Source: Dehalococcoidia bacterium
GTDB lineage: Bacteria; Chloroflexota; Dehalococcoidia; Lucifugimonadales; UBA3495
Direction of reading: 5' to 3'
DNA length: 64,000 nt
NCBI GenBank assembly: GCA_022450395.1
Contig: JAKUQE010000013.1
Coordinates: 395-64,394 of the forward strand
The first letter of the stretch is position 1. Each line of letters opens with the position of its first letter. Under the pieces are notes generated by a model, which worked only from the letters and a program-made list of their open reading frames with translations, was not told the DNA's origin and ran no database searches. Below are positions 46,603-61,506 of this stretch, in pieces. The translations under genes and the position numbers were made by a program.

Positions 46603-48606
46603 CTATTTAATCACCACCGCAGAGGTCATCCCGTTGGTGCTTTGCAGGCCGCCTAGGGTAGTGGTGTAGGGGAAGGTTAGACGGTCGCTCCGGTAGGACT
46701 CCAGTAGCGGCGTGGTAAACAGCACCACGTAGGGCAGGTCGTCGGCCAGAAATTCCTGCATCTTGAAAACCAGATCCCGGGCTGCGTCAAGATCGGTTTC
46801 GATCAGAAGTTGCTCGGCCAGGGCGTCGAACTCCGGATTCGAGTACCCGCCTCGATTGAGTCCGTCCCCCTCGGCATGGCGTGAGTGGAAGAAGGCTTCC
46901 AGATAATCTGGGAAATTGCTCAATCCCCAGCCCAATATCCAGATGTCGAAACCGTCCGGGTCCGCGATCTTTTCCACGATCACGTTAAAGTCGGTGAGCT
47001 TGGCCTTGGCCGGAATGCCCATGTCATTGAGCCACCGCTCGATCCAGATGGCGAAGGTAGACCGCAGGGGATCGTAACCCGGGCTGGGGGAGAGTATCTC
47101 CAGATCAGGCATCGGGTCGCCGTTGGGGAGTTTCAACCCTTTGCCCTCGACCTCAACGGTGCCATTCTCGCTGACCTTGGGTTCCTTTTCCCAGGTGAAA
47201 CCCGCGTCCTTCAGCAGCTTCACCGCCTCTTCGGTGCGTTCGGTCCGGGACAACCCCTTGCCGATCAACGAGACGTTGGGGTTGTACCAGAACCCGTTCC
47301 CTTCCGGCACGGTGGTGTACATGGGAATAGCGACCCCTTGAAGCACGGTACTGGTCAAGAACTCTTTGTCGATCAGGACTGCTATCGCCTGGCGGAAAGC
47401 TTTGATGTTCATGGGAGGATGGCGCATATTGAAGCCCAGATACCGGAACCCGTTGTTGGCGTTTTCCAATGTTTTCAAGCCCGCCTGGCCCTTCAGTTGT
47501 TCCTGTAACCCCCTTTGGAGACCCAGGGGATTCAGCATGAAGTCTATGTCTCCCTTCTTCAGTGCTAGAACCGCCGTTTCCTGGTTTCCGAAGATACTGT
47601 AGATCGTGCTTTCGGCAAAGGGACCCACGGTATAATCCAAGACTTTTTCGCCGGCGAGTTGGCCGTAGGCGTTGAATTCATAAACGCCAGGTTTAGACTC
47701 GGCGTAGGCCCCGTTGGAATATTGGATGATTGACGAGCCTTCGAAGTAGTGGTCCGGGTTCTTTATCTTTTCGGCGAAGGCCCCGTTCTCCCATTTTTTG
47801 AAGATATAGCCTCCGGCGGAGGGTTCATTCTTGGGCACGTGGGCGTATAGTGCCCTCTGTTGTTCGACGGTGGTACCCTCCTTTTTGGCTTCTTCAACCA
47901 CGGGTTCCCAAAATGCTTTGGACAAAATGGGCATGAAGGCCAATCCAAACTGCCAGCGGGCAAGACCGGGTTTCTGTTTGAAGTAGATTTTCAGCTTGTA
48001 AGGGTCGAGCGCTTCGGCGTGGTCGAAGAATTCAGTATCGACCGACGATGACCAGTTTCCCGAAAGTTCCAAATCCCGGACGGTATGGGCGGTGAAGATA
48101 AAGTCCTCGGCGGTCACGTCATTTCCATCGCTCCACTTCATTCCTTTTTTCAGCTCCACCTCGGTGGTCCAGAACGTCGTGCCGCCTACCGCCTCCTCTA
48201 ATACCGGTGTTGGGAAGTCGGTTGCCGCCGATGGGATCCAGTCGAAACGTTGATCGGAAAGACTGTACAGGGCGGGCTTGCCGCCGGACAATACGTACGA
48301 ATTCCAGATCGTGGTGTCCGGGCCCAGGTAGGCCCAATAGTTGGTGGTGGTGAGATCCTCAAAGATACCCAATTTATAGATCTTTGGCCCGGTCGACTCG
48401 GTAGTTTCGGCGGTCTTGGCCGTTTCGCTGGCTTCTTTTTGCTCGGCCGGCCTCTCGATGAAAACCTCTTTGATCACCTCTTTCTCTACGATCCTTTCCA
48501 CGGGCACTTCTTTAATTACTTCCCTGGTGCACCCTGTGGCGAACGCCACAACAAACACTGCGGCGAGGCCAATCATCAGTTTATTGGCTGGTGACCTGAG
48601 GCTCAT
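46603..48606 (-). CDS. Peptide ABC substrate-binding lipoprotein (family 5)
   Basis: Lipobox ATGC, KWSDG..VTAEDF, FRQAIA..IDK, GYSNPEFD. Confidence 0.9.
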   Translation of the reverse strand: MSLRSPANKLMIGLAAVFVVAFATGCTREVIKEVPVERIVEKEVIKEVFIERPAEQKEASETAKTAETTESTGPKIYKLGIFEDLTTTNYWAYLGPDTTIWNSYVLSGGKPALYSLSDQRFDWIPSAATDFPTPVLEEAVGGTTFWTTEVELKKGMKWSDGNDVTAEDFIFTAHTVRDLELSGNWSSSVDTEFFDHAEALDPYKLKIYFKQKPGLARWQFGLAFMPILSKAFWEPVVEEAKKEGTTVEQQRALYAHVPKNEPSAGGYIFKKWENGAFAEKIKNPDHYFEGSSIIQYSNGAYAESKPGVYEFNAYGQLAGEKVLDYTVGPFAESTIYSIFGNQETAVLALKKGDIDFMLNPLGLQRGLQEQLKGQAGLKTLENANNGFRYLGFNMRHPPMNIKAFRQAIAVLIDKEFLTSTVLQGVAIPMYTTVPEGNGFWYNPNVSLIGKGLSRTERTEEAVKLLKDAGFTWEKEPKVSENGTVEVEGKGLKLPNGDPMPDLEILSPSPGYDPLRSTFAIWIERWLNDMGIPAKAKLTDFNVIVEKIADPDGFDIWILGWGLSNFPDYLEAFFHSRHAEGDGLNRGGYSNPEFDALAEQLLIETDLDAARDLVFKMQEFLADDLPYVVLFTTPLLESYRSDRLTFPYTTTLGGLQSTNGMTSAVVIK

Positions 48607-48838
48607 CTTGTTCTCCCTTGGTTTATCGAGAAAATCGGAACTGAGTAAGAAAAATCAGATTTATTTGCGTTGAATCTGGTTGCGGCGCCTTCGGAGATTC
48701 CGCTGGCGCACGCATGAAGCATGATACCCATCGCCCCCTACTGTGGCAAGGCCGGCATGCTTCTCACAGCGGCAACTATATTAAAAACTACGTTGAATCT
48801 CCATCTCCGGTTTGCCGCATAAAAGACTCTCCATTTCT

Positions 48839-49360
48839 TCATGGAATGTGGCGTTTGGCTTCGCAATCTACCGACGCGAAGTCGTCGGCGCCCTCCTGTC
48901 CATCGCATATATCCATGCCATGGCCTCCGAACAACGAGTCGTTCCCTGCGCCGCCGAACAGGACGTCGTTTCCGTTACCGCCGATAAGGGTGTCATTGCC
49001 CAGGCCGCCAACCAAAACGTCTTCGCCAGCGGATCCAAAAAGAAAGTCGCGTTCGCCCCCGCCACTTAAAAAGTCTCGGCCACCCCGGCCGAATATGAAG
49101 TCGTCGCCTGGACCACCCAAGATCGTATCGTTGCCTTGCCCACCGATAAGGATGTCTTTCCCACCCAGGCCCAAAATCACAACGTCGGCAATTGACCCCC
49201 GGCAGTTGATCAGGTCGTCGCCAGCCGTCCCATAGAAGGACCAGCCCAAACTCCTGGCGTGGCCGGTGCAGGTGACCTGTGCCTGCACCGGGTCGCCGTG
49301 GCCGAACAACGTCAGTAACATGAGCAAGATCAGCGCAGCCGTGATCGTGGGTCTGTTCAT
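48839..49360 (-). CDS. Small secreted protein with RTX/hemolysin-type Ca-binding repeats
   Basis: Signal peptide followed by many GGxGxDx(L/I) nonapeptides. Confidence 0.85.
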   Translation of the reverse strand: MNRPTITAALILLMLLTLFGHGDPVQAQVTCTGHARSLGWSFYGTAGDDLINCRGSIADVVILGLGGKDILIGGQGNDTILGGPGDDFIFGRGGRDFLSGGGERDFLFGSAGEDVLVGGLGNDTLIGGNGNDVLFGGAGNDSLFGGHGMDICDGQEGADDFASVDCEAKRHIP

Positions 49361-49485
49361 CGATCAACTCCTCCCCAACTACATTGTAAGCACATTATTG
49401 TAAGCACATTTGGTAGAGTGGTTTCAAGCCGAAGAGGCGTTTCACCTCGACAACCGCGAACGTAGCGGCGTAACATGTTGAGGCT

Positions 49486-50940
49486 ATGGACCGATTAGTG
49501 AAGCAGCCGGTGATCAAAGGAGTCCGCTATCAACTGGGGCATGCACCGGGCTTGGTGCGCCATGGCTCAAAGCCTTCCCGGGAGATCGAAAAAGACCCCG
49601 CTTTGCTGGACAGCATCACGGCCCATCTTCGCTCCTACCCTGAAGCCGTCGCCTATCCCCCCAACCGCGCTTTCCTGGGCGGCATCTATCCCGACCAACT
49701 GTGGGAGATCGAGCGGCCGTGGTTCCACGGCAACGGCGAATCGCAACGTTGGCTCCCTCACGGCGAAATCATGCCCGAGGAAGAACTGATCGGTCTGCTG
49801 AAGATAGCCGACGCATTCAACCTCGTCTGGCTGGAAGAAGGATTCACCGGCCTCGTCCGGAACGCGTTGGCGGACCATCCCCTGATCACGTCCGGCGACC
49901 TGGACGCCCTGGACGGCGCCAAGAGTCAGTCAGACATTGAAGCTGAAGTGGCAAATGGGGCGGGCACTCTGCCTTTGCATCTACGGGACGGTAGCTTGGT
50001 GGGATGTATCAGGCGCGCCCATGACGAGGACGCCACCCTGACCGCCGACGTCATCCTAGAAAACTTGGCCTGTAAAGTCACCGCCGCCATGGCTCTGCGA
50101 ACCCTTTTGCGGGACCAAGGACTGGACGGCTCTGGCATTGATTATGTGCTAAACACCGGGGAAGAGGCGGTTGGGGAGCGTTACCAGAGAGGCGGGGGGA
50201 ACCTGGCCAAGGCGATCGCCGAGATGTGCGGTCTGGAAAATGCCACCGGTTGCGATGTTAAAGCCTTCTGTTGCGGACCGGTCCACGCTCTGGTCATGGC
50301 CGGCGCGTTGGTGAGCTCGGGCCTGTACCGCCAAGTTGCGGTGGTCGGTGGCTGTTCCCTGGCCAAGCTGGGCATGAAATTTCAAGGACACCTGCAGCAC
50401 GACCAACCGATATTGGAGGACATCCTGGCCTCGGTGGCCGTTCTCGTGGGCGAAGATGACGGGACAAGCCCAGTGCTGCGGCTGGACTCGGTAGGCCGTC
50501 ACACCGTGGGGGCTGGCTCCAGCCAGCAGGCCATCTTCGAGCAGTTGATTTCCGTCCCCTTGGAAAACCTGGGATTGGGTTTTCAAGACATCGATAAGTA
50601 CGCCACCGAGTTACACAATCCCGAGGTAACCGAGCCCGCCGGAAGCGGGGACGTGCCCAAGCTGAACTACCGCCTCATCGGCGCGTTGGCCGTGCGCCAC
50701 CAAGAGATTGAAAGAGAAGCTTTGACGGACTTCGTGGAAGTCCACGGCATGCCCGGCTTTTCGCCTACCCAAGGACATATCGCCTCCGCCGTCCCCTTCC
50801 TCGGCCACGCCGTGGAGCGAATGATGGATGGTAGAATGAATCGAGCCATGTTCCTGGCCAAAGGGAGCCTGTTCTTGGGCCGCATGACCCAGATGTCCGA
50901 CGGCCTGTCCTTTATTTTAGAGGCAAATCCAAGCAAATAG
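49486..50940 (+). CDS. grdC: Glycine/sarcosine/betaine reductase component C, GrdC-like subunit
   Basis: AHDEDATL...ENLACK, EEAVGERYQRGGGNLAKAIAE, FCCGP, PGFSPTQGHIAS, KGSLFLGRMT. Confidence 0.88.
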   Translation: MDRLVKQPVIKGVRYQLGHAPGLVRHGSKPSREIEKDPALLDSITAHLRSYPEAVAYPPNRAFLGGIYPDQLWEIERPWFHGNGESQRWLPHGEIMPEEELIGLLKIADAFNLVWLEEGFTGLVRNALADHPLITSGDLDALDGAKSQSDIEAEVANGAGTLPLHLRDGSLVGCIRRAHDEDATLTADVILENLACKVTAAMALRTLLRDQGLDGSGIDYVLNTGEEAVGERYQRGGGNLAKAIAEMCGLENATGCDVKAFCCGPVHALVMAGALVSSGLYRQVAVVGGCSLAKLGMKFQGHLQHDQPILEDILASVAVLVGEDDGTSPVLRLDSVGRHTVGAGSSQQAIFEQLISVPLENLGLGFQDIDKYATELHNPEVTEPAGSGDVPKLNYRLIGALAVRHQEIEREALTDFVEVHGMPGFSPTQGHIASAVPFLGHAVERMMDGRMNRAMFLAKGSLFLGRMTQMSDGLSFILEANPSK

Positions 50941-50954
50941 CGGCGACCCCCCAT

Positions 50955-51050
50955 CCCTTCGGCTGCGCTCAGGGCAGGCGCTAACCTTCCACCGCAAGGG
51001 GGAAAGGGATTTGTCCTCTCCTCCTTTACGGGGGAGAGTTAGAGAGGGGG
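50955..51050. repeat. Composite REP-like elements between grdC and grdA
   Basis: cccttcggctgcgctcagggcaggc, then cttccaccgcaagggggaaggg and ctctcc...ggggagagttagagagggg hairpins. Confidence 0.65.
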
Positions 51051-51072
51051 AACCCATGGGAGGTCTGCACCG

Positions 51073-51528
51073 ATGCAACTCAAAGGTATGAGAGTAATTG
51101 CTCTGGGAGAACGGGACGGGGTCCAAGGGTCCGCCATCGCCAACTGCGCCCGCAGTTCCGGAGCGGAAGTGGTTCTGGAGATGACCCACTGTTTCGTTTG
51201 AACCGCCGCCGGCGCCCTTGACCTGGAGGGTCAAGAAGATATCAAGCGGATCGTCGACCAGATAGGCACCGACAACCTCGTCGTCCTGCTGGGCACCCCC
51301 ACCCCCGAGAGCACCAAGCTCTACGCCACCACCGTTACCGACGGCGACCCCTCGTGGGCCGGAGCTTTGGCGGGCGAGGCCCTGGGTCTCCCCGCCTACC
51401 ACATCACCGAGCCGGAGATCAAAGAACAGATCGACTCGGCCACTTACGACCTGGAAGTTGGCTTGGCCGACATCGCCTTAGACGCCGAGGAGATTGCCCG
51501 CGCCATCAAAGAGGTGCGGGGCGGATAA
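51073..51528 (+). CDS. grdA: Reductase complex selenoprotein A, 151 aa, Sec43 (UGA 51199-51201)
   Basis: Manual translation: MQLKGMRVIALGERDGVQGSAI...THCFV-U-TAAGALDLE...TVTDGDPSWAGALAG..LGLPAYHI.EPE. GGAGG SD; hairpin CTTGACC-TGGAG-GGTCAAG at 51217-51235. Confidence 0.95.
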
Positions 51529-51781
51529 CATAAATTTGCCTTCCAAAGTTTTCCGGACAACGCCTAACGGTGGAGATCAGCGGCAGCGGGAAGATGGCAA
51601 GACCAACTGCAATCTTAACCTATCCCAATAGGCGAAATTGGCCGCATCAAATCAGAACGGTCTTAGTAGTCCGCTACATTGATATTTCAAACAGTACTCT
51701 GCCCCTGTAAAACCAACTCTGTACGTGCCTCCACTTTCCCAGGGCGATGCGGACGAGCGGCCAGCGCTCAAGATTGACCAA

Positions 51782-52042
51782 CTATCTTGCAATCGTGTGT
51801 AACTCTTCTCGAATGACTTTCCGCAGGGTGGTCTCAAGTATGTTGTCTCGATACTGAAGGTACTCGCGCAATGCATCATTGATTAGCGTTTGGTAGTTGC
51901 CGCCTCCCGCCTCATGAACTTGATGGCGAAACTTGTTCAAGATATCCGTATCGATCCGAATCGTGATGCGGGATTTGCCAGGGGATGGCTTCACCACTGC
52001 CCCTTGCTCAGCCTGGTCAAAGTTGTACTCTTTTTCGCTCAT
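51782..52042 (-). CDS. BrnA-family antitoxin
   Basis: EYNF...KSRITIRIDTDIL..F...GGNYQTLINDALREY. Confidence 0.9.
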   Translation of the reverse strand: MSEKEYNFDQAEQGAVVKPSPGKSRITIRIDTDILNKFRHQVHEAGGGNYQTLINDALREYLQYRDNILETTLRKVIREELHTIAR

Positions 52043-52298
52043 AAGTTCTCCGCTCCGGTCTTGTGGCACGGCGTGCCGAAATCAAGCGAATGTCTTCGTG
52101 ACGATAGGTATAGACCACGATCAGCACACGTCCAAGAAAGTCCATACCGAGCGTGACAAACCGCTGTTCGTCTTCTACATAGTGTTCTTTGATGGTCAAT
52201 GCCCATTGGTCTTCGAATACACCTGCCGCATCTGAGAAATCGATTTTGTGGTTGTCCAGATTGGCTTGAGCTTTGTCACGATCCCACTGGAAGCTCAT
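52017..52298 (-). CDS. BrnT-family toxin
   Basis: FQWD..KA..N..H.IDF.DA..VF.D, EQRF, IRLISARRAT. Confidence 0.92.
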   Translation of the reverse strand: MSFQWDRDKAQANLDNHKIDFSDAAGVFEDQWALTIKEHYVEDEQRFVTLGMDFLGRVLIVVYTYRHEDIRLISARRATRPERRTYERKRVQL

Positions 52299-52304
52299 GA
52301 AGTT

Positions 52305-52333
52305 ACTATATGTACAATCGGCGTACAGGTCAA
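52305..52333 (-). promoter_or_regulatory. brnTA promoter (leaderless) with palindromic operator
   Basis: TTGACC-17 nt-TATAGT, 6 nt before the ATG; the spacer is TGTAC-gccgatt-GTACA. Confidence 0.7.
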
Positions 52334-52388
52334 GTGTAGCAGACCGCTATCACACCCAATCAAGTTGTGGATCTATGAGAGCATTCTT

Positions 52389-52532
52389 GAGCCGGAGATC
52401 AAAGAGCAAATCCACGCCGCTAACTACAAGCTTGAATTGGGGCTGGCCGATATGGGGCGAGACGCTGAAGAGATCGCCCGTGCCATCGAAGAGATGCAGG
52501 GCAATTGGCTCATCAATACTCGACACTACTAA
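52389..52532 (+). pseudogene. Orphan 3' fragment of a second grdA allele
   Basis: Encodes EPEIKEQIHAANYKLELGLADMGRDAEEIARAIEEMQG versus grdA EPEIKEQIDSATYDLEVGLADIALDAEEIARAIKEVRG. Confidence 0.85.
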
Positions 52533-53802
52533 GTTTGCTGAACCCGTAGTGGTCGTCGTAGCGCTGGGGGGCGGGTAGAGGGCCGGCGGTGGGGACGTAG
52601 TGGTCCCGGAGGCGACCGCTTATTTTTTGAGGGTTGCCGATGACCCGGTCCACGGGCGGCAGCGGGTCCAGCCCTAGGAGGTCTGCCCGGAAGAAGCTGG
52701 TGGACACGATGGCGTCGGCCTCGGGAACCGGCTCCAACATGGTGGGAGCGCTTCCCGTCGGGTCGTCCTCGCTGGTCAGGAACACGGTCTTGATCCCGGA
52801 CCTCTCACAGGCCTGGAGCGTTCGGATAACCTCGATGAACTCGTTGCCGCCGGCGTCCCAGGTGATCAACGCGCCCTCGGCCCCCAGCATCTTGGCGACC
52901 TTGGCCGTCTGATTGGCGGTCATTTCCTTCTCATGCTGGGTGGTCCATTCGGTGCGGGTGGCGATGACTCCCAGGAAGTTGAAGTCGGTGCCGTGGCGGC
53001 GGTACAGGTCCAACAGCGCCGGATTGTTGGCCATGGTCCAAGACGTGGCGAAGGCGGTGCGGTAAGGGCCGGTTATGGCTCCATCGAGGATCTCGTTGGG
53101 ATGGAACAACCAGGGCGGGGTGAGCTGGGTCAGGCCGTAGGTGGAGGTGCAGAACGTAGCCGGGGAGCCTGACATCGCTTGGGGCGAATGCAGGCACAGG
53201 ATGTACACCACCTTGGGTAATGAGGGGTCCACGTCGGTAAGCTCGAAGGTTTCCCGTTCCGGCGGGTCCAGGCTGGCGGTGGCTGCCGCCAGCCTGTCCG
53301 ATACGGTCAGGACAGCGTTGTGGACGGCATCGTTCCTGGCGTCGACCCCCAGGTTAGGGTCGGGCTCCACCACCACGCACAGGTTGATCAGGGAGCTGGT
53401 GGGGATGATCTCCGACCACGGGCCGGACATGTCCAGGTAGACGAACAGGTGGTCGCCGCCGGCCTCGTGCCACGGAGTTTCGGAAACTTCAACCACTCCG
53501 ACGCCGGACAGCCGGTGGGTGCGTCCTTCGCCCACCGTGGTGATGGAGCGGCCGCAGATGCCGGGGTATACCACCCCAGGCCCTTCCACCTTTACCCGAG
53601 GCTCCACCACGTCCCGCACCGGCCAGATGCGCACGGATTCTCCGGGCTTGGCTAGTTCAAGGTCAGCCTTGGCGATGCGAGGGTCGGATCTCACGGCGTC
53701 AAGAATCTCGTCCCGCGCAACTTCCAGCAGCCCGTCCCGCCATTGGGTTTGGGCCCCGAACACCACGTCGTGAACTGGGAAAGTGCCTATCTCAAGACGC
53801 AT
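52513..53802 (-). CDS. Reductase component B proprotein-like subunit (GrdE/GrdG/GrdI family)
   Basis: MRLEIG, AKPGESVRI.PV.DV.EPR.K, VGEGRTH.L, HPNEILDGA, E..GIKTV. Start at 53802 overlaps the stop of the upstream selenoprotein B gene. Confidence 0.88.
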   Translation of the reverse strand: MRLEIGTFPVHDVVFGAQTQWRDGLLEVARDEILDAVRSDPRIAKADLELAKPGESVRIWPVRDVVEPRVKVEGPGVVYPGICGRSITTVGEGRTHRLSGVGVVEVSETPWHEAGGDHLFVYLDMSGPWSEIIPTSSLINLCVVVEPDPNLGVDARNDAVHNAVLTVSDRLAAATASLDPPERETFELTDVDPSLPKVVYILCLHSPQAMSGSPATFCTSTYGLTQLTPPWLFHPNEILDGAITGPYRTAFATSWTMANNPALLDLYRRHGTDFNFLGVIATRTEWTTQHEKEMTANQTAKVAKMLGAEGALITWDAGGNEFIEVIRTLQACERSGIKTVFLTSEDDPTGSAPTMLEPVPEADAIVSTSFFRADLLGLDPLPPVDRVIGNPQKISGRLRDHYVPTAGPLPAPQRYDDHYGFSKLSSVEY

Positions 53803-55141
53803 GGACCGCCTCCCTAGCCGGAGCCGATTCGTCCGGGTCGAACAGGGTGGGACCACTGACATCGGTCTGGAGGGCTTGCAGCGCCGTTCGGACGATCTGC
53901 AGGCCGTAGGCGAAGTCCTTTTCCGGACCCAGATCCGGGTCGCCGCACACATGCTCGATCCTGGCCCCGCGTATCACCCGGTTGGCGCCCGTGGTGAGGG
54001 CCAGGTTGTAAATGGCGGATATCATGGCCACGGGGATGCCCACCCGTTCGATCTCCTTGCTCACCGTCGCGCCGCAACGGTTGCAGGTGCCTCAAGTCGC
54101 CACCAGGATACAGGCATCCACGCCGGCGTCCTTCAGTTCCTGCGCCATCTCGGCGCCCAGGTGCTTGGATTTAGCCACCGGGGTACTCACGCCGGGCAGG
54201 GTGATGATCTGCGAAGCAACCCGGCCGATCACGCCTTGCGACTCCAGGTGGCGCAAATGACTTAGGGGAAGGATGTAATTCGGGTTGTCGCTGGCTATCT
54301 GGTTGTAGTAGCCGCCGTGGAAAGCTTCCCAGTCATCACCGGTCAGGGATTCCAGCCCGTCAATCGGATATGAGAAATAGCGCTCCGCATTGCCGGAAAC
54401 CTGGCGGTCCGGGTTGCCGATGGGAATCAGCCCCCCGGTTGAGATAAGGGCGATGGTGGCCTGGCTCAGGTCCCGCTGGAGCGACGCCGCCGGAACGGCT
54501 TCCGGGGCTTGGAAAGGGACCTCTGTCTGGAACGGTTCGCCGCGCAGTTTCTTGGCCAGCATGTCCACGGCCCTTTTGTATCCAGGCTCCGATCTCTCGG
54601 AGACTTTGCGTATCCCCCGGCCCAAGTAACCCTCGGTCTCCGCCGGGCCCATCTCTTCACCCGACGTTAGCTTTTGGGCGATCTGGAACATTTGGGAGAC
54701 AACATCGGGCAGGTCCACGGGGCTGGTACCGGTGGGAACGATGTACACCTGCCGCCGGTAGGTCAGCACGCCAGGGTTTTCCGGGTGCATGGCGGTGATC
54801 GCCGGGATGCCCAGATCTTGGGCGGCGGCGCAAACCGCTCCGCAGGCCAGGCCGTAGCGTCCGGCGTCGAAGGCCGGACCAGCGACCACCAGATCGGGTT
54901 TGGCCTCCCGCCACGCCTGAGTGACATCAGCCAGCGCCTGCTCGCGCTGCTCGTTGAAATAGTTGTCGCCGCAGATGATGGTCGCTTCGACGGTTCCACC
55001 GTCCCCCAGCAGTTGCTGGAAGAGACGGGCCGGGCCAATGGGGCCCTTTTTAACCTCGACGGGTATGTTGGCTTTCTCTTCGGCCCCCACGCCACCGAAG
55101 AACTGATTAACGAAGTAGACGACTTTGAGAGATCCGGCCAT
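53792..55141 (-). CDS. Reductase selenoprotein B (GrdB/GrdF/GrdH family), 449 aa, Sec350 (UGA 54092-54094)
   Basis: NQFFGGVGAEEKA, CGDNYF, GPAFDAGRYG, HGGY. Read-through gives ILVAT-U-GTCNRCGATVSKEIERVGIP, joining ORF 53792-54064 in frame. Confidence 0.94.
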
Positions 55142-55236
55142 GTTGGTTCCTCCTGGATTGGGGGTTTGCTCCCAGAGGCGGGTGGTTCGACAGGCTCACC
55201 ACGAGCGGGGTTGGTAGCGCCGTGTTACCGCATACC

Positions 55237-56151
55237 TCATGCAACCGGCGGATTATGCTGGTACCAGTCCACGATCTCCGAGCCGGTGGCCGCCCAAACG
55301 CCTTCGCGCCGGGTCATATGGGCCAGGGCGTCGTCAAGGTAGCCTATGCGGAATGGTTGGCCGATGAGCCAAGGGTGAAGGTTCAGCGTCATCAGCCTTC
55401 CGTTCTGTTGCCCATCTTCATACAGAGTGTCGAAGGCCTCGGTAAGCATGTCCCGGTAACGGCCCACGGTGACCCGCCGTTGCCAAAGGGACACGACGTC
55501 GTCCAGTTCCAGCATGATCGGCAGCGCGAACAAATCGCCGTGGGGGCTTTCCAGCCGGTAGGGTTGTTCGTCGTTGACCCAGTCGCACACGTAGCGGATC
55601 CCGGCCTCGGACAATAATTGGGGAGTCCGGGACGACTCGCCGTACTCGGGGCCCAGCCATCCGGTGGGCGCTTTTCCGGTGGCCTTGGCCAGACTGTCCA
55701 TCGATGAATGGATGTAGTGCCGCTCTTCCTGCTCAGTCATGTTGCCGGTTATCATGCGGCTTACCGATATCCCGTGGCCGATGATTTCGCAACCACGTTT
55801 CAGGCAATGGTCTACCAGGTACGGGTAGTTCTCGGCGGTCATGGCGTCCATGGCCACCGTTGCTTTGATTCCGTGCTTCTCCAGTGTGTCCAGCACGCGG
55901 AAAATACCAACTCGGTGTCCGTACTCCCGGTGGGAGGTGCGGGCGAAGTCCGGATACCCCCGGGAGCCCATGCCGCCGGCCAGAAGGGTGGTGAAACTTC
56001 CCTCCGGTTCAGTCCATTCCATGTGCTCCAGGTTCACGATGACGCAGAGGGCGACCCGGGCGCCGTCCGGCCAACGCAACTTTCCCCGGTTGACGATGGG
56101 AGACCATTGGTAATGTGGGTGATCCATGCCGGGACGGCGTTCTGCAGGCAT
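55237..56151 (-). CDS. Polysaccharide deacetylase-fold hydrolase (PuuE allantoinase-like)
   Basis: WPDGARVA, REYGHRVGIFR, GWLGP, DWVNDEQP, LHPWLIGQPFR; AGGAGG SD before ATG 56151. Confidence 0.88.
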   Translation of the reverse strand: MPAERRPGMDHPHYQWSPIVNRGKLRWPDGARVALCVIVNLEHMEWTEPEGSFTTLLAGGMGSRGYPDFARTSHREYGHRVGIFRVLDTLEKHGIKATVAMDAMTAENYPYLVDHCLKRGCEIIGHGISVSRMITGNMTEQEERHYIHSSMDSLAKATGKAPTGWLGPEYGESSRTPQLLSEAGIRYVCDWVNDEQPYRLESPHGDLFALPIMLELDDVVSLWQRRVTVGRYRDMLTEAFDTLYEDGQQNGRLMTLNLHPWLIGQPFRIGYLDDALAHMTRREGVWAATGSEIVDWYQHNPPVA

Positions 56152-56188
56152 TCGTAAAAGCCTCCTAGGCTCGAGAGGTGATGGGGGC

Positions 56189-56217
56189 GTAGGGGCAGGT
56201 TTCAAACCTGCCCCTAC
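56189..56217. repeat. GTAG-type REP palindrome
   Basis: GTAGGGGCAGGTTT-C-AAACCTGCCCCTAC, perfect 14-bp inverted repeat. Confidence 0.85.
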
Positions 56218-56225
56218 CCGGATGG

Positions 56226-57134
56226 CTACTTATTTAGTTGTCCCGCGTGGGTTACGGCTGCATCGTAGTTATTCGCGATGTAGTAATCGGCGATGTCGTC
56301 GGCCGTGGTTTGCCATACCCCTTCGTGGGACATGATGTAACCCAAGACTTCGTCCAGGTACTTCACCCGGTGGGGTTGGCCGGTTAGGAATGGATGGAGA
56401 GCGATACACATGACCCGCCCGCTCTCGGCTCCCTCTTTGTAGAGCTGGTCGAATTGGGCTTTGCAGATCTCCGCGAAGTAGTCTCCCTCGTAGTGTTGCC
56501 GGTACAGAGGAGCGTCGTTCAGTTCGATAGAGTATGGGACGGAGATTAGCTTTCCCGACTTCACCTTGATGGGCACCGGCTGGTCGTCGTGCATCCAGTC
56601 GGTGTGATAGATCAGGCCTGCCTCGGCCATCAGGTCTGGGGTACGCTCGGTGCCGGAGATTGCCGGGCCTAGCATGCCCTTTAGCTGCTTGCCGGTTTCG
56701 CGGCGCAGGGTTTCGATGCAGTCCACGTAGAACTCTCGCTCCTGCTCCTCCGACATGGGATTCAAGTACCGGGTGTTGTAGATGCCGTGGCTCATGAAGT
56801 CCCAGTTCCTTTCGACCATGGCGTCTTTTATCTCGGGGTAGTGTTCAAGCACCGCCATGTTCAGCGAAACGCAGCAGCGGATGTTGTGCTTATCCAGGAC
56901 CTCCAACATCCGCCAGAAGCCGACCCGGTTGCCGTAGTCCCGATAAGAGTACTGTTGCACGTCGGGGTAAGGCATGCGCGGCCAGGGGTCCCTTTGTCCA
57001 TCGTACTCCGGCTCGTATTCGTAGTGTTCCACGTTGGGCGCTATCCACAGCGCTACCCTGGCGCCATTGGGCCATTTGATGGGAGGGCGGTCGATGATGG
57101 GACTGTAGTCGACTCGATCTGGTTGTAGCGGCAT
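56226..57134 (-). CDS. Polysaccharide deacetylase-fold hydrolase (paralogue of 55237-56151)
   Basis: WPNGARVA, RDYGNRVGFWR, DWMHDDQP, LHPFLTGQPHR. Confidence 0.9.
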   Translation of the reverse strand: MPLQPDRVDYSPIIDRPPIKWPNGARVALWIAPNVEHYEYEPEYDGQRDPWPRMPYPDVQQYSYRDYGNRVGFWRMLEVLDKHNIRCCVSLNMAVLEHYPEIKDAMVERNWDFMSHGIYNTRYLNPMSEEQEREFYVDCIETLRRETGKQLKGMLGPAISGTERTPDLMAEAGLIYHTDWMHDDQPVPIKVKSGKLISVPYSIELNDAPLYRQHYEGDYFAEICKAQFDQLYKEGAESGRVMCIALHPFLTGQPHRVKYLDEVLGYIMSHEGVWQTTADDIADYYIANNYDAAVTHAGQLNK

Positions 57135-57172
57135 GATGAGATGCCTCCTTGGCTAAAGGGATTGCCGGCGGC

Positions 57173-58600
57173 TTAGCTGAGGGTCCCGGCTAGACTGGTC
57201 AGATTCGCCAACTCCGGCGAGGTGTCATCAGCGCCACTCCAGCCGTCGATGGCGTCTTGGAGAGTGGATCTGGCCGGTCCGGTCTCCCCGGTACTGGCCT
57301 GGACGCGCCCCATCCAGAACGTGTCCCTGATTGATGCCCGGCGGCCCAACCGCTCCCGGAGCATGGTTTCGGCTTTGTCGAACTGCTCGGCCCGAAGATA
57401 GGCTTCCAACAGAGTGTCCTCAAACACTTCCCGTTGGGCGTGGCTACCGCCGATCCGTTCTAGTTGTTGCATGGGCGGCTCCATCAATGTTACCGCCGCG
57501 CCATAGTTGCCTTCCGCGAAAGCGGCGATGCCCTGCACCAATGGCAAGGTCATCTCCTTCGCCAAAACGTTGCCCTGATCCGCGATCGTCCGCAGGCCGT
57601 CGATCGCCTTGCCCAGGGCATCCTGGTCGCCGGCGGCGGCGAATGCCAGAGCGGCGTGGGCATCCCGGAAAGGTGGGCCGGGATTTCCCGCGGCGGGCAT
57701 CGCCTGGTCGCGTACTTCGTCCCAGGGCTTGGGAGGGGGAGTGCCGCAGTACAACTGCAACCGCCACAATAGAGAAGCGCTGTCGGCCAGGGAAGCGGCG
57801 CTTTTCGCGATCACCGATGGCCTTATGTATGTCTCGTACCGGTCTAGGGCCTTCTGGTAGCCGCCCATGGCCAGCTCGAATAGAGCTAGGTGCCACGAGA
57901 GGTGGACATGGTAAGCGGCCCGCTTGTCGAAACCCTCCAGCCAGTTGCTCAAGAAATCGCCGCCCGAGACGGCATCCCCTTGCTCGAAGAACACGTGGGT
58001 TATCGAATGGGACGCCACTGCGTTGGTGGGGCGCATCTCCAGCGACTTCTGCGCCAGGCGATAGGCTTCCTCCAACCGGCCGGTTTCGTGGTGAGCGAAG
58101 GCGTAGCTTCCCAGGAAAGCCCAGTCGTCGCTGCAATGTTTCTCTAGACTTTGGCACAGAGCGAATAGCTCTTCAGGGAAATTAGGGACACCGGCGCTGT
58201 GGCAGCCCTGAATAAACAGTCGTTGGGCCAGCCTAAGCATAAAAGTGTCTCGAGGATAGTCGTTGAGGTGCTCGCGTAATAAGGCCAAAGATTGTGGTCC
58301 CTTATTATTGATCCAAAGCGAGAGTGCCTCTATCTGGCGCTTTTCCCGGTCGGACATATCGGACGCCAAAGCCTGGGCACGCCCTACGTTTTCTTTAGCC
58401 TCCGACGCTACGCCGCGCATCATCGACACCCAAGCCAGCCCGGCATGGGGCAGGGCGAAGCCTTCGTCAGCATCGATGGCCTGTTGGAATTTTTCTTCAG
58501 GCCCAAAATTTTGGGAGAGCAGCAGGTCTATACCTTCCGTGCAGGCTTCGGCCGCCACCGTTGATTTGGTGCTGATCGGAAGTCCGAACCGGTCTTGCAA
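57173..58600 (-). CDS. TPR-repeat protein (TTC38-like)
   Basis: HSITHV, HLSWHLAL, SLLWRL, IGGSHAQREVFE motifs. Confidence 0.8.
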   Translation of the reverse strand: MQDRFGLPISTKSTVAAEACTEGIDLLLSQNFGPEEKFQQAIDADEGFALPHAGLAWVSMMRGVASEAKENVGRAQALASDMSDREKRQIEALSLWINNKGPQSLALLREHLNDYPRDTFMLRLAQRLFIQGCHSAGVPNFPEELFALCQSLEKHCSDDWAFLGSYAFAHHETGRLEEAYRLAQKSLEMRPTNAVASHSITHVFFEQGDAVSGGDFLSNWLEGFDKRAAYHVHLSWHLALFELAMGGYQKALDRYETYIRPSVIAKSAASLADSASLLWRLQLYCGTPPPKPWDEVRDQAMPAAGNPGPPFRDAHAALAFAAAGDQDALGKAIDGLRTIADQGNVLAKEMTLPLVQGIAAFAEGNYGAAVTLMEPPMQQLERIGGSHAQREVFEDTLLEAYLRAEQFDKAETMLRERLGRRASIRDTFWMGRVQASTGETGPARSTLQDAIDGWSGADDTSPELANLTSLAGTLS

Positions 58601-58745
58601 AGTGGTTCCTCCTACCCAGGGGGCGCTGCTGCCCCGGTGTTAACCGATGACAAGATCCGAAAGTTGTTGGCTACAAGGACTAGTTCGGAGTGTAATGGGG
58701 GCTCCAATCCCTGTCAACGGCTTCCACCGGCACCCATCTCTCTCG

Positions 58746-59790: not shown

Positions 59791-59945
59791 TCCCCTCCTT
59801 ATGAAGGAGGGGACTTAGGGGAGGTCGTTTCTCTGGGAGAGCACTATTCCCTGACTCTCCTAGGTCGGGGTGAGGGGCGAAATCCCCCCAACCCCCCTTT
59901 ACGAAAGTGGGGCTTGACGGTATTTGCTAACTACGGGGGATTTTG
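59791..59945. repeat. Cluster of REP-like hairpins (CCCC...GGGG family)
   Basis: tcccctccttatgaaggagggga and aaatcccccaacccccctttacgaaagtgggg...gggggattt; relative at 43340-43384. Confidence 0.65.
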
Positions 59946-59958
59946 GGGAGGATTGAGT

Positions 59959-61506
59959 CTACTTGCCGTCCTTGATGAAGTCGCTGACCCGCTCGCCGAT
60001 CATCATGGTGGTGACGTTGGTGTTGGCCCGGATGCAGTCGGGCATGATGGATGCGTCTACGACACGCAGACCTTCTAGGCCGTGTACCTTGCCGTACTGG
60101 TCCACCACCGCCATCGGATCCGACGACGGGCCCATCTTGCAGGTGCATGAGATGTGCTGGGAGGTGGTTACCGTGCGAGCTATCCACTGGTCCAAGGCTT
60201 CGTCGGACGCCATTTCGGCGTCGGTTGGGGAGATCCGCTCCTGGATGATGTCTTTGAAGGATTCGTGCTCGCCCAGATCGACGCAGATCCGCACTGACTC
60301 CCGCAACCGGCGGACGTCGGACTCCTCTTTCAAGTAGTTGTAGTCCAGGACCGGTTGGGCCGCGGGATCCGCGGACGCTAATTTCAGTTCACCGGCCCCG
60401 GCGGCCAGGTAGATTCCGCTGGTCATGCGTATGCCCAGGGGCTCCATGCGGCCGCCGCCCTGGTTGACGGGCTGGGTGGCGAAGGACTGCATGGATATCT
60501 TCATGTCGTTACGCAGGTCCGAGTCTCCGGCCGTGTAACGAAGGGTCAACTGCATCCTGGGGGCTAGGCCGTCCAGAGGGAAACCTTCCTTAGTGCGCCA
60601 AGTGATCCACACCGCCGGATGGTCTCTTAGGTTTTGCCCCACACCCGGAGCGTCTTTAACCACTGATATGCCCAGACTACCCAGGTGATCGGCCGGGCCG
60701 ACCCCGGAGAGCATCAATATCTGGGGCGAGCCGATGGCCCCGGAGCTCAAGATTATCTCGTCGCCCTCGACGACAAAGGTCTCGCCGCCGCTCTCCAGTT
60801 CCACCCCGGTCGCCCGGTTTCCCTCAAACAGGATGCGGTGAACCAGGCACTCAGGCCTAATGGTCAGGTTCAAACGGTGTCTTGACTGGTCCAAGTAGCC
60901 CATGGCGGTGCTGATGCGGATGCCGCCGGGATTGTTTAGGGGAGTGGGTCCGACCCCCTCGGAGTCGGGATTGTTATGGTCTGGGCAATCCTGATATCCG
61001 GCGTCGATGCAGGCTTCGTAGAATGCCGTCTGGGCGGGCAGCCAGGTTTCCCGCTTGAAGCGGTGCATGATGATGGGGCCTTCGCTGCCGTGAAAGTCGC
61101 CCGAAAAGTCGGGGTCCGTTTCTACTTTGTTGAAATAAGGGATCAGCTTCTGAAAGTTCCACTGATCGTTGCCCTCCGAAGCCCAGGAGTCGTAGTCCTC
61201 GGGCACCCCTCGCAAGAAGACCTGACCGTTGATGGCGCTGGAGCCGCCGGTGACCTTGCCTCGAGGGACCATCATCGGCCCAGCCTGGTCCGTCGACTTG
61301 CCGATGAATTGCCAGTTGTGGTCGCTGGTCATGATGTCCGCCTCGGTGGCGTAGCCGAATTTCACTTCGTCGGGCAGGTCATCGAAGTTCGGGTAGTCTT
61401 TCCCCGCTTCCAATAGCAACACCGAGCGGTTGGGGTCCTCGGTCAAGCGTGTGGCCAATATGGACCCCGCCGACCCTGCGCCAATAATTATCACGTCATA
61501 TTTCAT
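59959..61506 (-). CDS. GMC-family FAD oxidoreductase (choline dehydrogenase/MftG-like)
   Basis: IIGAGSAG, RGKVTGGSSAING, SPQILMLSGVG, VGQNLRDH, LRVVDASIMP..ANTN. Confidence 0.92.
   Translation of the reverse strand: MKYDVIIIGAGSAGSILATRLTEDPNRSVLLLEAGKDYPNFDDLPDEVKFGYATEADIMTSDHNWQFIGKSTDQAGPMMVPRGKVTGGSSAINGQVFLRGVPEDYDSWASEGNDQWNFQKLIPYFNKVETDPDFSGDFHGSEGPIIMHRFKRETWLPAQTAFYEACIDAGYQDCPDHNNPDSEGVGPTPLNNPGGIRISTAMGYLDQSRHRLNLTIRPECLVHRILFEGNRATGVELESGGETFVVEGDEIILSSGAIGSPQILMLSGVGPADHLGSLGISVVKDAPGVGQNLRDHPAVWITWRTKEGFPLDGLAPRMQLTLRYTAGDSDLRNDMKISMQSFATQPVNQGGGRMEPLGIRMTSGIYLAAGAGELKLASADPAAQPVLDYNYLKEESDVRRLRESVRICVDLGEHESFKDIIQERISPTDAEMASDEALDQWIARTVTTSQHISCTCKMGPSSDPMAVVDQYGKVHGLEGLRVVDASIMPDCIRANTNVTTMMIGERVSDFIKDGK

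Follow-up and report, generated by a model that had tools for sequence, protein, structure and literature searches.

Candidate Grd reductases without GrdD in a marine Dehalococcoidia bacterium and other phyla

The Grd enzymes are Stickland machines of strict anaerobes, which carry out substrate-level phosphorylation using three components, proteins A, B and C, the last of which combines GrdC with GrdD. Of these two, GrdD is said, following Kohlstock in 2001, to be the subunit that forms the acetyl thioester and acetyl phosphate. The design is modular in Eubacterium acidaminophilum, where several B modules draw on a shared core. The cluster of Acetoanaerobium noterae has the order trxB-trxA-grdE-grdA-grdB-grdC-grdD, and that of Enterococcus gilvus pCR1A the order trxB-trx-grdA-grdC-grdD-grdI-grdH-BCCT. 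The locus described here lies in a 64,000-nucleotide stretch (the window) of a metagenome-assembled genome (MAG) from a Dehalococcoidia bacterium (assembly GCA_022450395.1, contig JAKUQE010000013.1, positions 395 to 64,394 of the forward strand). It encodes GrdC and GrdA homologues that converge on a two-gene B module and, judged by its sequence, it resembles a betaine-type Grd reductase, yet it fails the tests for GrdB, GrdF, GrdH, FarE and PrdB, and GrdD is missing. Its four genes are as follows:

49486..50940, plus strand: grdC, the protein C beta subunit, with a FabH-like core (NF040746, 650 bits; cut-off 450)
51073..51528, plus strand: grdA, selenoprotein A (NF040748, 182 bits; cut-off 130; also PF04723)
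52513..53802, minus strand: GrdE/GrdG/GrdI-family subunit (PF09338, 276 bits; cut-off 22), with the clade motif TGPYRTAFA
53795..55141, minus strand: GrdB-family selenoprotein of 449 aa (PF07355, 406 bits; TIGR01918, 442 bits; cut-off 65)

Each product is recognisable as a Grd component. GrdC also matches the Pfam family DUF5940 and an ACP_syn_III segment. GrdA has the CxxU of selenoprotein A within the motif CFVUT, its in-frame TGA at 51199-51201 specifying selenocysteine (Sec) at residue 43, and the B subunit has the UxxCxxC of its family as UGTCNRC, with the TGA at 54092-54094 specifying Sec350. The B gene stops at a second TGA, overlapping by about 11 nt the start of the E-family gene, which is most likely at 53802 (MRLEIG) rather than at an ATG further upstream, at 53952. 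Neither in-frame TGA can be put down to chance, as orthologues align through both at 61-99% identity along all 449 and 151 residues; the genome also encodes SelB (353 bits) and tRNA-Sec. Hairpins lie 3' of the UGAs in both the grdA and GrdB-family genes, with folding energies like those of shuffled sequence. Every gene named in an initial annotation of this stretch was recovered at its position, and the host is non-clostridial, as that annotation had supposed: the MAG (3.99 Mb in 359 contigs, 78.6% complete, with the window on contig C35) belongs to a Dehalococcoidia/SAR202-type bacterium, the nearest public relatives of which bear the titles Dehalococcoidia, Chloroflexota or SAR202 cluster bacterium. 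There is one GrdA and one GrdC in the genome, and grdA lies beside grdC in 11/11 relatives.

GrdD was missing at every level searched. Within this genome, neither the GrdD model (NF040747) nor seven GrdD proteins used as tblastn queries found anything beyond a PlsX-like gene on contig C46, which the model scores at 27 bits; the same model returns 552 bits for E. gilvus pCR1A and 581 bits for A. noterae, in both of which grdD directly follows grdC. GrdD was likewise found in none of 41 relatives (GrdC is above the cut-off in 12 of them, including the single-contig genomes G012, G020 and G028); in none of 401 Dehalococcoidia genomes, 43 of them with GrdC; in none of five distant GrdC-bearing genomes (a deltaproteobacterium, a member of the Desulfosalsimonadaceae, one of the Latescibacterota, Entotheonella and a Rokubacteria MAG); and nowhere within 10 kb on either side of GrdC at 53 loci. 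In the phylum of genome G041, GrdD is present in five of 301 genomes, each time directly downstream of grdC, and a further 13 genomes have GrdC (12 above the cut-off), none of them with GrdD. It is hardly credible that the window represents a canonical glycine reductase with grdD and trx left on unassembled contigs. The genome is indeed incomplete and fragmented, but this explanation is already contradicted by the single-contig relatives and the class-wide search, which together rule out MAG incompleteness as the cause of the absence; by a gene order in which grdA, rather than the grdD of canonical loci, follows grdC; and by the failure of the B/E pair in the glycine-reductase tests described below. 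Two other candidates were rejected. A remnant of GrdD in the spacer at 51529-52512 yielded only noise matches (E of at least 0.014, on an 11-residue match), and a conserved neighbour replacing GrdD did not emerge from the clustering of 638 flanking open reading frames (ORFs) at 42 GrdC loci, where no family other than GrdC, GrdA, GrdB and GrdE occurs in more than nine.

The initial annotation had reported no match to GrdD, TrxB, thioredoxin (Trx) or AckA, which is correct for the window's contig, and its proposal of a non-canonical system is borne out by the absence of GrdD from both genome and lineage. The missing thioredoxin system, which it treated as a peculiarity, is unremarkable, because the reductant is available elsewhere in the genome: C101 carries a pair of TrxB-like genes (338 and 336 bits, just short of the cut-off of 343), and C308 carries Trx. 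Trx genes occur in the flanks of only two GrdD-less loci.

Differences within GrdC itself accompany the presence or absence of GrdD. In a maximum-likelihood tree of 63 non-identical rows, drawn from an alignment of 71 (7 GrdD-linked and 64 GrdD-less, eight rows being duplicates), the seven GrdD-linked sequences form one clan (SH-aLRT 100) with the 56 GrdD-less sequences on the other side; as the tree is unrooted, gain and loss of GrdD are indistinguishable. All seven GrdD-linked proteins have an extra C-terminal, helix-like tail of ~30 residues (...LLDALxxLAxxLxK). This is present in 0/64 GrdD-less rows, the window's GrdC included, four of which bear unrelated tails. The comparison suggests that GrdD-linked and GrdD-less GrdC are two kinds of protein, with the helix proposed to be a docking element for GrdD. 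At the opposite extreme to the window's architecture are the fused GrdC-GrdD proteins P0124, P0125, P0126 and P0136 (842-861 aa), which have a homologous GrdC domain and the conserved FabH-type Cys, but in which the GrdD domain is covalently attached.

The FabH-like fold attributed to GrdC by the initial annotation is supported by an AlphaFold2 model (pLDDT 89.7, pTM 0.92), the top structural matches of which are FabH, OleA and HMG-CoA synthase (Foldseek E ~1e-11 and TM ~0.5 on the target against FabH / KAS III). Cys262, invariant in 71/71 rows, is at the position of the FabH nucleophile, and aligns with the catalytic Cys of FabH enzymes in a profile alignment of marginal similarity (E ~1e-5). 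In the matched structures 4z19 and 3il4 this Cys is acetylated from acetyl-CoA; GrdC differs in having an extra N-terminal domain of ~160 residues and DUF5940, and its use of coenzyme A (CoA) is suggested by analogy. Residues 261-263 form the FCC motif, which the initial annotation had cited in suggesting that GrdC might hand the acyl group to an acceptor other than GrdD. Residue 263 is Ala in 7/7 GrdD-linked proteins and Cys in 50/64 GrdD-less rows. Yet FCC occurs in only two of 26 full-length representatives from a global library reduced at 50% identity, and most tail-less representatives have FCA, ruling out a general signature; FCC therefore marks the window's clade and not the tail-less state. 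These 26 representatives comprise four GrdC-GrdD fusions, two fragments with a GrdD part, three helix-tailed proteins, 12 without a tail and five with other tails, two of which are thioredoxin-like. As a separate observation, the GrdC-like proteins P0208 and P0211 have thioredoxin-like tails (WGPRCQPC) and may be either real fusions or mis-called ORFs.

The enzymes that would handle acetyl phosphate are also missing. Searches for AckA were negative in this genome and in each of the 12 GrdC-positive relatives; among all 41 relatives, AckA occurs in one GrdC-negative genome and Pta in none. The combined loss of GrdD, the putative docking tail, AckA and Pta argues that acetyl phosphate is not the product. 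It is unlikely that the chemistry is nevertheless canonical, with acetyl phosphate made either by an unrecognised protein in the role of GrdD, such as the housekeeping PlsX-like phosphate acyltransferase, or by GrdC itself acting with phosphate. The PlsX-like gene on C46 is the sole weak relative of GrdD in the genome, GrdD being PlsX-related to the extent that its model also responds in PlsX-bearing control genomes, and the window's GrdC scores as an equivalog of canonical GrdC. Against these points must be set the lack of both AckA and Pta in every GrdC-positive relative, the lack of any additional gene conserved beside grdC-grdA across the 42 loci, and the lack from GrdD-less GrdCs of the helix that accompanies GrdD.

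The B module also stands apart from the described families. Measured against NCBIfam cut-offs, the B subunit scores 401 bits for GrdB (TIGR01917; cut-off 602), 447 for GrdF (800) and 401 for GrdH (775), and its partner scores 227 for GrdG (780) and 130 for FarE (675); the D-proline reductase models PrdB and PrdA reach only 90 (300) and 20 (700). The controls pass, with 946 bits for A. noterae GrdB and 798 for E. gilvus GrdH. By these scores the pair is neither a sarcosine reductase nor a D-proline reductase, nor does it qualify as GrdH or FarE/FarB. It does not qualify as a glycine reductase proper either, on score or on motif. The available text of Nobu et al. 2022 (PMC9751293) gives the GrdB motif as AHGGxD ... 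RV[IL]PxD ... TxGNxTxV, whereas the window's subunit reads FHGGYY, YILPLS and LPGVSTPV, mismatching the GrdB/GrdF motifs given there. In a 38-row tree, which has three reference sequences and neither GrdF nor PrdB among them, the B subunit falls within a clade of 21 rows (support 100) that excludes the GrdB/GrdH references; all members have UxxCxxC, and their hosts belong to Dehalococcoidia, Nitrospinota, Tectimicrobiota, Latescibacterota and Rokubacteria/Methylomirabilota. Scores, motifs and phylogeny thus agree with the earlier suggestion that this subunit is distinct from canonical glycine reductase. No solved structure matches it by sequence.

Its partner had been called proprotein-like, which holds for its homology to the proprotein family but not for the processing cysteine, which is absent. 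At the position of A. noterae GrdE Cys242, reportedly the cleavage and pyruvoyl-precursor residue (Bednarski 2001), the window's protein has Arg, and the 15 columns around it contain no Cys. The corresponding residue is Phe in E. gilvus GrdI, and is Cys in 0/40 E-like proteins examined from GrdD-less genomes. The missing cleavage cysteine argues against a pyruvoyl enzyme. According to the accessible part of Leong et al. 2023 (PMC10838667), GrdI and FarE are also without processing cysteines, and FarB is without CxxC.

Comparison with three known systems places the locus between them without matching any. The betaine reductase GrdH/GrdI has the same architecture, a UxxCxxC selenoprotein with a partner lacking the processing cysteine, and shares GrdA (CxxU) and GrdC; the window differs in being without GrdD, an adjacent trx, BCCT and the C-terminal helix of GrdC, in a B subunit that is 37% identical to GrdH, and in its aerobic-type marine Dehalococcoidia host. 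The clostridial glycine reductase GrdABCDE has homologues of all four Grd-type proteins of the window, and presumably the same selenoether relay, but the window has FHGGYY for AHGGYD, PLS for PVD, no equivalent of Cys242 and another gene order, and belongs to a lineage without GrdD, AckA or Pta. The FarE/FarB of Cloacibacillus, as far as the accessible part of PMC10838667 describes it, shares the non-processed E subunit and sets an amine-free substrate module on a shared GrdA and protein C; however, the window's B subunit keeps CxxC, and Cloacibacillus has the grdD that the window's lineage is without. The likeness to FarB is instead found in two further B/E pairs of the same genome (C157:16652-19352 and C293:7134-9755), the B subunits of which have the motif UGTSTRS, with no CxxC after Sec.

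Neither C157 nor C293 has grdA or grdC, and one GrdA and GrdC used by three B modules would, by analogy, match the modular design known from E. acidaminophilum. The neighbourhoods of these two modules give no clear hint of substrate: the C157 pair adjoins a gene for a 570-aa DUF255 thioredoxin-like protein and has TPR, LUD, FAA-hydrolase, luciferase-like and CoA-transferase genes nearby, and the C293 pair is accompanied by SDH, fumarase and unknowns. B modules and GrdC occur together. E-like genes are present in 12/12 GrdC-positive relatives and in only 1/29 GrdC-negative ones, that one being 67% complete; GrdC-positive genomes have 1-5 B modules each; and in five phyla the orthologous B/E pair is a neighbour of grdC-grdA.

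There are indications of further diversity. A fourth B/E clade (L116-L119, from G017, G012, G022 and G005) lies far from grdC-grdA; its E subunit scores higher with Pfam, at 365-390 bits, but has Tyr at the cleavage-Cys position, and its B subunit has UGTGTRS and HGGCD. Contigs C213, C184, C28 and C212 have weak matches to the C-terminus of GrdB/PrdB, each with one in-frame TGA, and may encode extra short selenoproteins.

On the minus strand, upstream of the B gene, lies a second group of genes, which the initial annotation had linked to the reductase:

55237..56205, minus strand: PuuE-like polysaccharide-deacetylase-family hydrolase 2 (PF01522; TIGR03212, 120 bits)
56226..57134, minus strand: PuuE-like polysaccharide-deacetylase-family hydrolase 1, ~35% identical to hydrolase 2
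57173..58600, minus strand: TPR-repeat protein of 475 aa, with weak TPR Pfam matches, present in 6/42 loci

The nearest solved structure of the hydrolases is the PuuE allantoinase 3cl6 (E 1e-27 to 1e-30), yet they are not allantoinases by score (120 and 130 bits for TIGR03212; cut-off 424). They might, with the TPR protein, prepare a substrate, for example through ring-opening of a cyclic amide or N-deacylation, after which the B module would reduce it. This is quite improbable, even though the two sets of genes run in the same direction with short gaps in the window, G001, G011, L041, L044 and L063, and RNA-library contigs cover both. The linkage is local and uncoupled in both directions. The deacetylase pair occurs in 8/42 GrdC loci, all from close Dehalococcoidia, and three of these eight (L039, from the same-genus G003, L042 and L043) have no orthologous B/E pair, while the hydrolase-TPR-HADH-GMC block still abuts grdA; G003, which is 95% complete, has no window-type E gene anywhere in its genome. 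Conversely, no such hydrolases accompany the orthologous B/E pair at 11 loci from several phyla. The TPR protein travels with the hydrolases and not with the B pair. Hence the hydrolases are probably a separate catabolic island. In some close relatives grdA is followed by the hydrolase block at the very point where the window has the B/E pair, a pattern suggesting that the window-type pair is an insertable module, gained or lost as a unit. Overall, the core of the initial annotation, a non-canonical system without grdD, stands, whereas the coupling to the hydrolases and TPR protein and the significance given to the absent Trx do not; nor is FCC a general mark of GrdC without GrdD.

In the wider neighbourhood, an Opp/Dpp-type ABC transporter lies on the upstream side, and the downstream flank encodes a D-2-hydroxyacid dehydrogenase, a GMC oxidoreductase, a DinB-family protein and an amidohydrolase. 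Four further features were delimited:

59959-61506, minus strand: GMC oxidoreductase (mycofactocin-associated dehydrogenase MftG, 398 bits, cut-off 387; choline-dehydrogenase subfamily, 460 bits, cut-off 605)
48839-49360, minus strand: 173-aa protein with a signal-like N-terminus and RTX calcium-binding nonapeptide repeats
50941..51072, no strand assigned: intergenic dispersed short repeat element, outside the enzyme system
51529..52512, no strand assigned: ORF-poor spacer of ~985 bp between the convergent grdA and E-like gene

GMC (choline-dehydrogenase-like) oxidoreductases lie near the cluster in 6/42 loci, on both sides of it in G005, and their recurrence is a weak hint towards choline or betaine. 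The RTX-repeat protein, between the ABC transporter and grdC, is conserved in 6/42 loci. The repeat element, seen also near 59875-59915, has 35 blastn matches across the genome, and the only match in an Rfam scan of 48600-58700 was a sub-threshold one to a miRNA family inside it. In all four RNA-library runs it has a very high summed depth, and loose ends fall at 50948 and ~59875-59915; its reverse frame, '...SLTLPRKGGE...CPERSRR', recurs in spurious ORFs of relatives. A contig joint of 51050 to 55237 in two of the RNA runs was rejected as a deletion, one side consisting of 20-28 matching letters inside the repeat element. The spacer is lower in GC than the window as a whole (49.8% and 57.7%), blastn matched it neither to relatives nor to the rest of the genome, and it has no credible Rfam family; in G011, grdA and the E-like gene are only 9 bp apart.

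On balance, it is probable that the locus is one of a GrdD-less, multi-phylum branch of Grd reductases, in which shared GrdA and GrdC would work with one of three B modules on a betaine-like substrate, and the acetyl group would pass to CoA or water. In the proposed cycle, Sec350 of the B subunit would attack the alpha-carbon of X-CH2-COO-, with no Schiff base, since the partner subunit cannot make a pyruvoyl group. Given this non-pyruvoyl, GrdH/GrdI-like architecture, X would most likely leave as a quaternary or onium group, for example the trimethylamine of glycine betaine, or that of a related N-alkyl or onium acetate. The carboxymethyl group would move to Sec43 of GrdA, and be turned by GrdC into an acetyl thioester on the FabH-type Cys262. 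From there, because the FabH fold loads its Cys from acetyl-CoA, the acetyl group may leave to CoA, by the reverse of FabH loading, or be hydrolysed, rather than pass to phosphate. Oxidised GrdA would be re-reduced by the Trx and thioredoxin reductase encoded elsewhere. We infer the substrate class, the acetyl acceptor and the activity of the enzyme in an aerobe.

A number of points weigh against this interpretation. Firstly, the substrate class is deduced from just the missing Schiff-base chemistry and a loose GMC adjacency, and with GrdH at 401 bits for a cut-off of 775, the B subunit is no betaine-reductase orthologue. Secondly, the transporter next to the cluster is the Opp/Dpp-type one, and not a betaine transporter of the BCCT or OpuA type. 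Thirdly, the B pair is dispensable, given its absence from G003, L042 and L043. Fourthly, an unrecognised, non-homologous protein may substitute for GrdD; FCC is specific to one clade, and for 29/56 rows of the GrdC tree the GrdD-less label refers to the 10-kb flanks only. Fifthly, the folding energies of the hairpins, which resemble the selenocysteine insertion sequence (SECIS), are no different from those of shuffled sequence (z = -0.06 and -0.58). Finally, Grd enzymes are regarded as sensitive to oxygen, and this genome has a gene for a heme-copper oxidase. The more specific proposal, that a GrdD-independent reductase of aerobic-type marine SAR202, Tectimicrobiota, Nitrospinota, Latescibacterota and Methylomirabilota cleaves betaine, onium or N-alkyl acetates into an amine or sulfide and acetyl-CoA through GrdC, is doubtful as a whole.

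The oxidase also bears on whether there is a substrate reductase in this aerobe at all, as opposed to redox-defence selenoproteins or a decaying relic of anaerobic life. Peroxidase activity of GrdB has reportedly been observed. Cultured SAR202 bacteria are described as aerobic in the accessible text of PMC10444878. However, none of the four genes is disrupted, their Sec codons are conserved, and their orthologues are 57-97% identical across phyla; Cys262 and UxxCxxC are conserved; and the co-occurrence of B modules with GrdC, at one to five per genome, is near-perfect. Either alternative is highly improbable.

The window's sequence is found in the ocean. Fourteen marine plankton or other marine DNA runs hold at least half of its sampled words (94-99%), and six marine metatranscriptome runs hold 20-37% of them. 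In 4/4 marine metatranscriptome runs examined, there are contigs 95-99% identical over parts of grdC, the E and B genes, and the hydrolase, TPR and GMC genes; being contigs from libraries in which DNA carry-over is possible, these are weak evidence of expression. In the parts of the reports available, marine surveys keyed on grdH found the pathway to be rare or absent (PMC5537630, PMC12324868), and early selenoproteome work recorded single grdA and grdB reads from the Sargasso Sea (PMC1088965). The available text of PMC9469722 writes 'GrdEBCA', with GrdD not included, and that of the SAR202 culture paper (PMC10444878) mentions neither betaine nor selenium. A literature search, mostly outside subscription journals and supplements, found no description of a Grd system without GrdD, and no pairing of SAR202, Entotheonella, Rokubacteria or Latescibacteria with Grd reductases.

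Sequence comparison therefore points to what appears to be a coherent branch of the Grd family, without GrdD, its putative docking helix or the acetyl-phosphate enzymes, and with B modules that, in every case examined, are without the pyruvoyl chemistry that glycine would require. GrdD-less loci of this kind are common in ocean Dehalococcoidia (43/401 genomes sampled), and occur in at least five other phyla. They raise the question of where GrdC delivers its acetyl group if there is no GrdD. If active, such enzymes would change what protein C needs in order to work, and widen the substrate range of the Grd family, with a bearing on the cycling of betaine and methylamines in the sea. Were the proposed chemistry true, it would represent an unrecognised catabolism of osmolytes that needs neither O2 nor tetrahydrofolate. 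Trimethylamine in the water column would then have a hidden source, by a route that grdH-based surveys would have overlooked.

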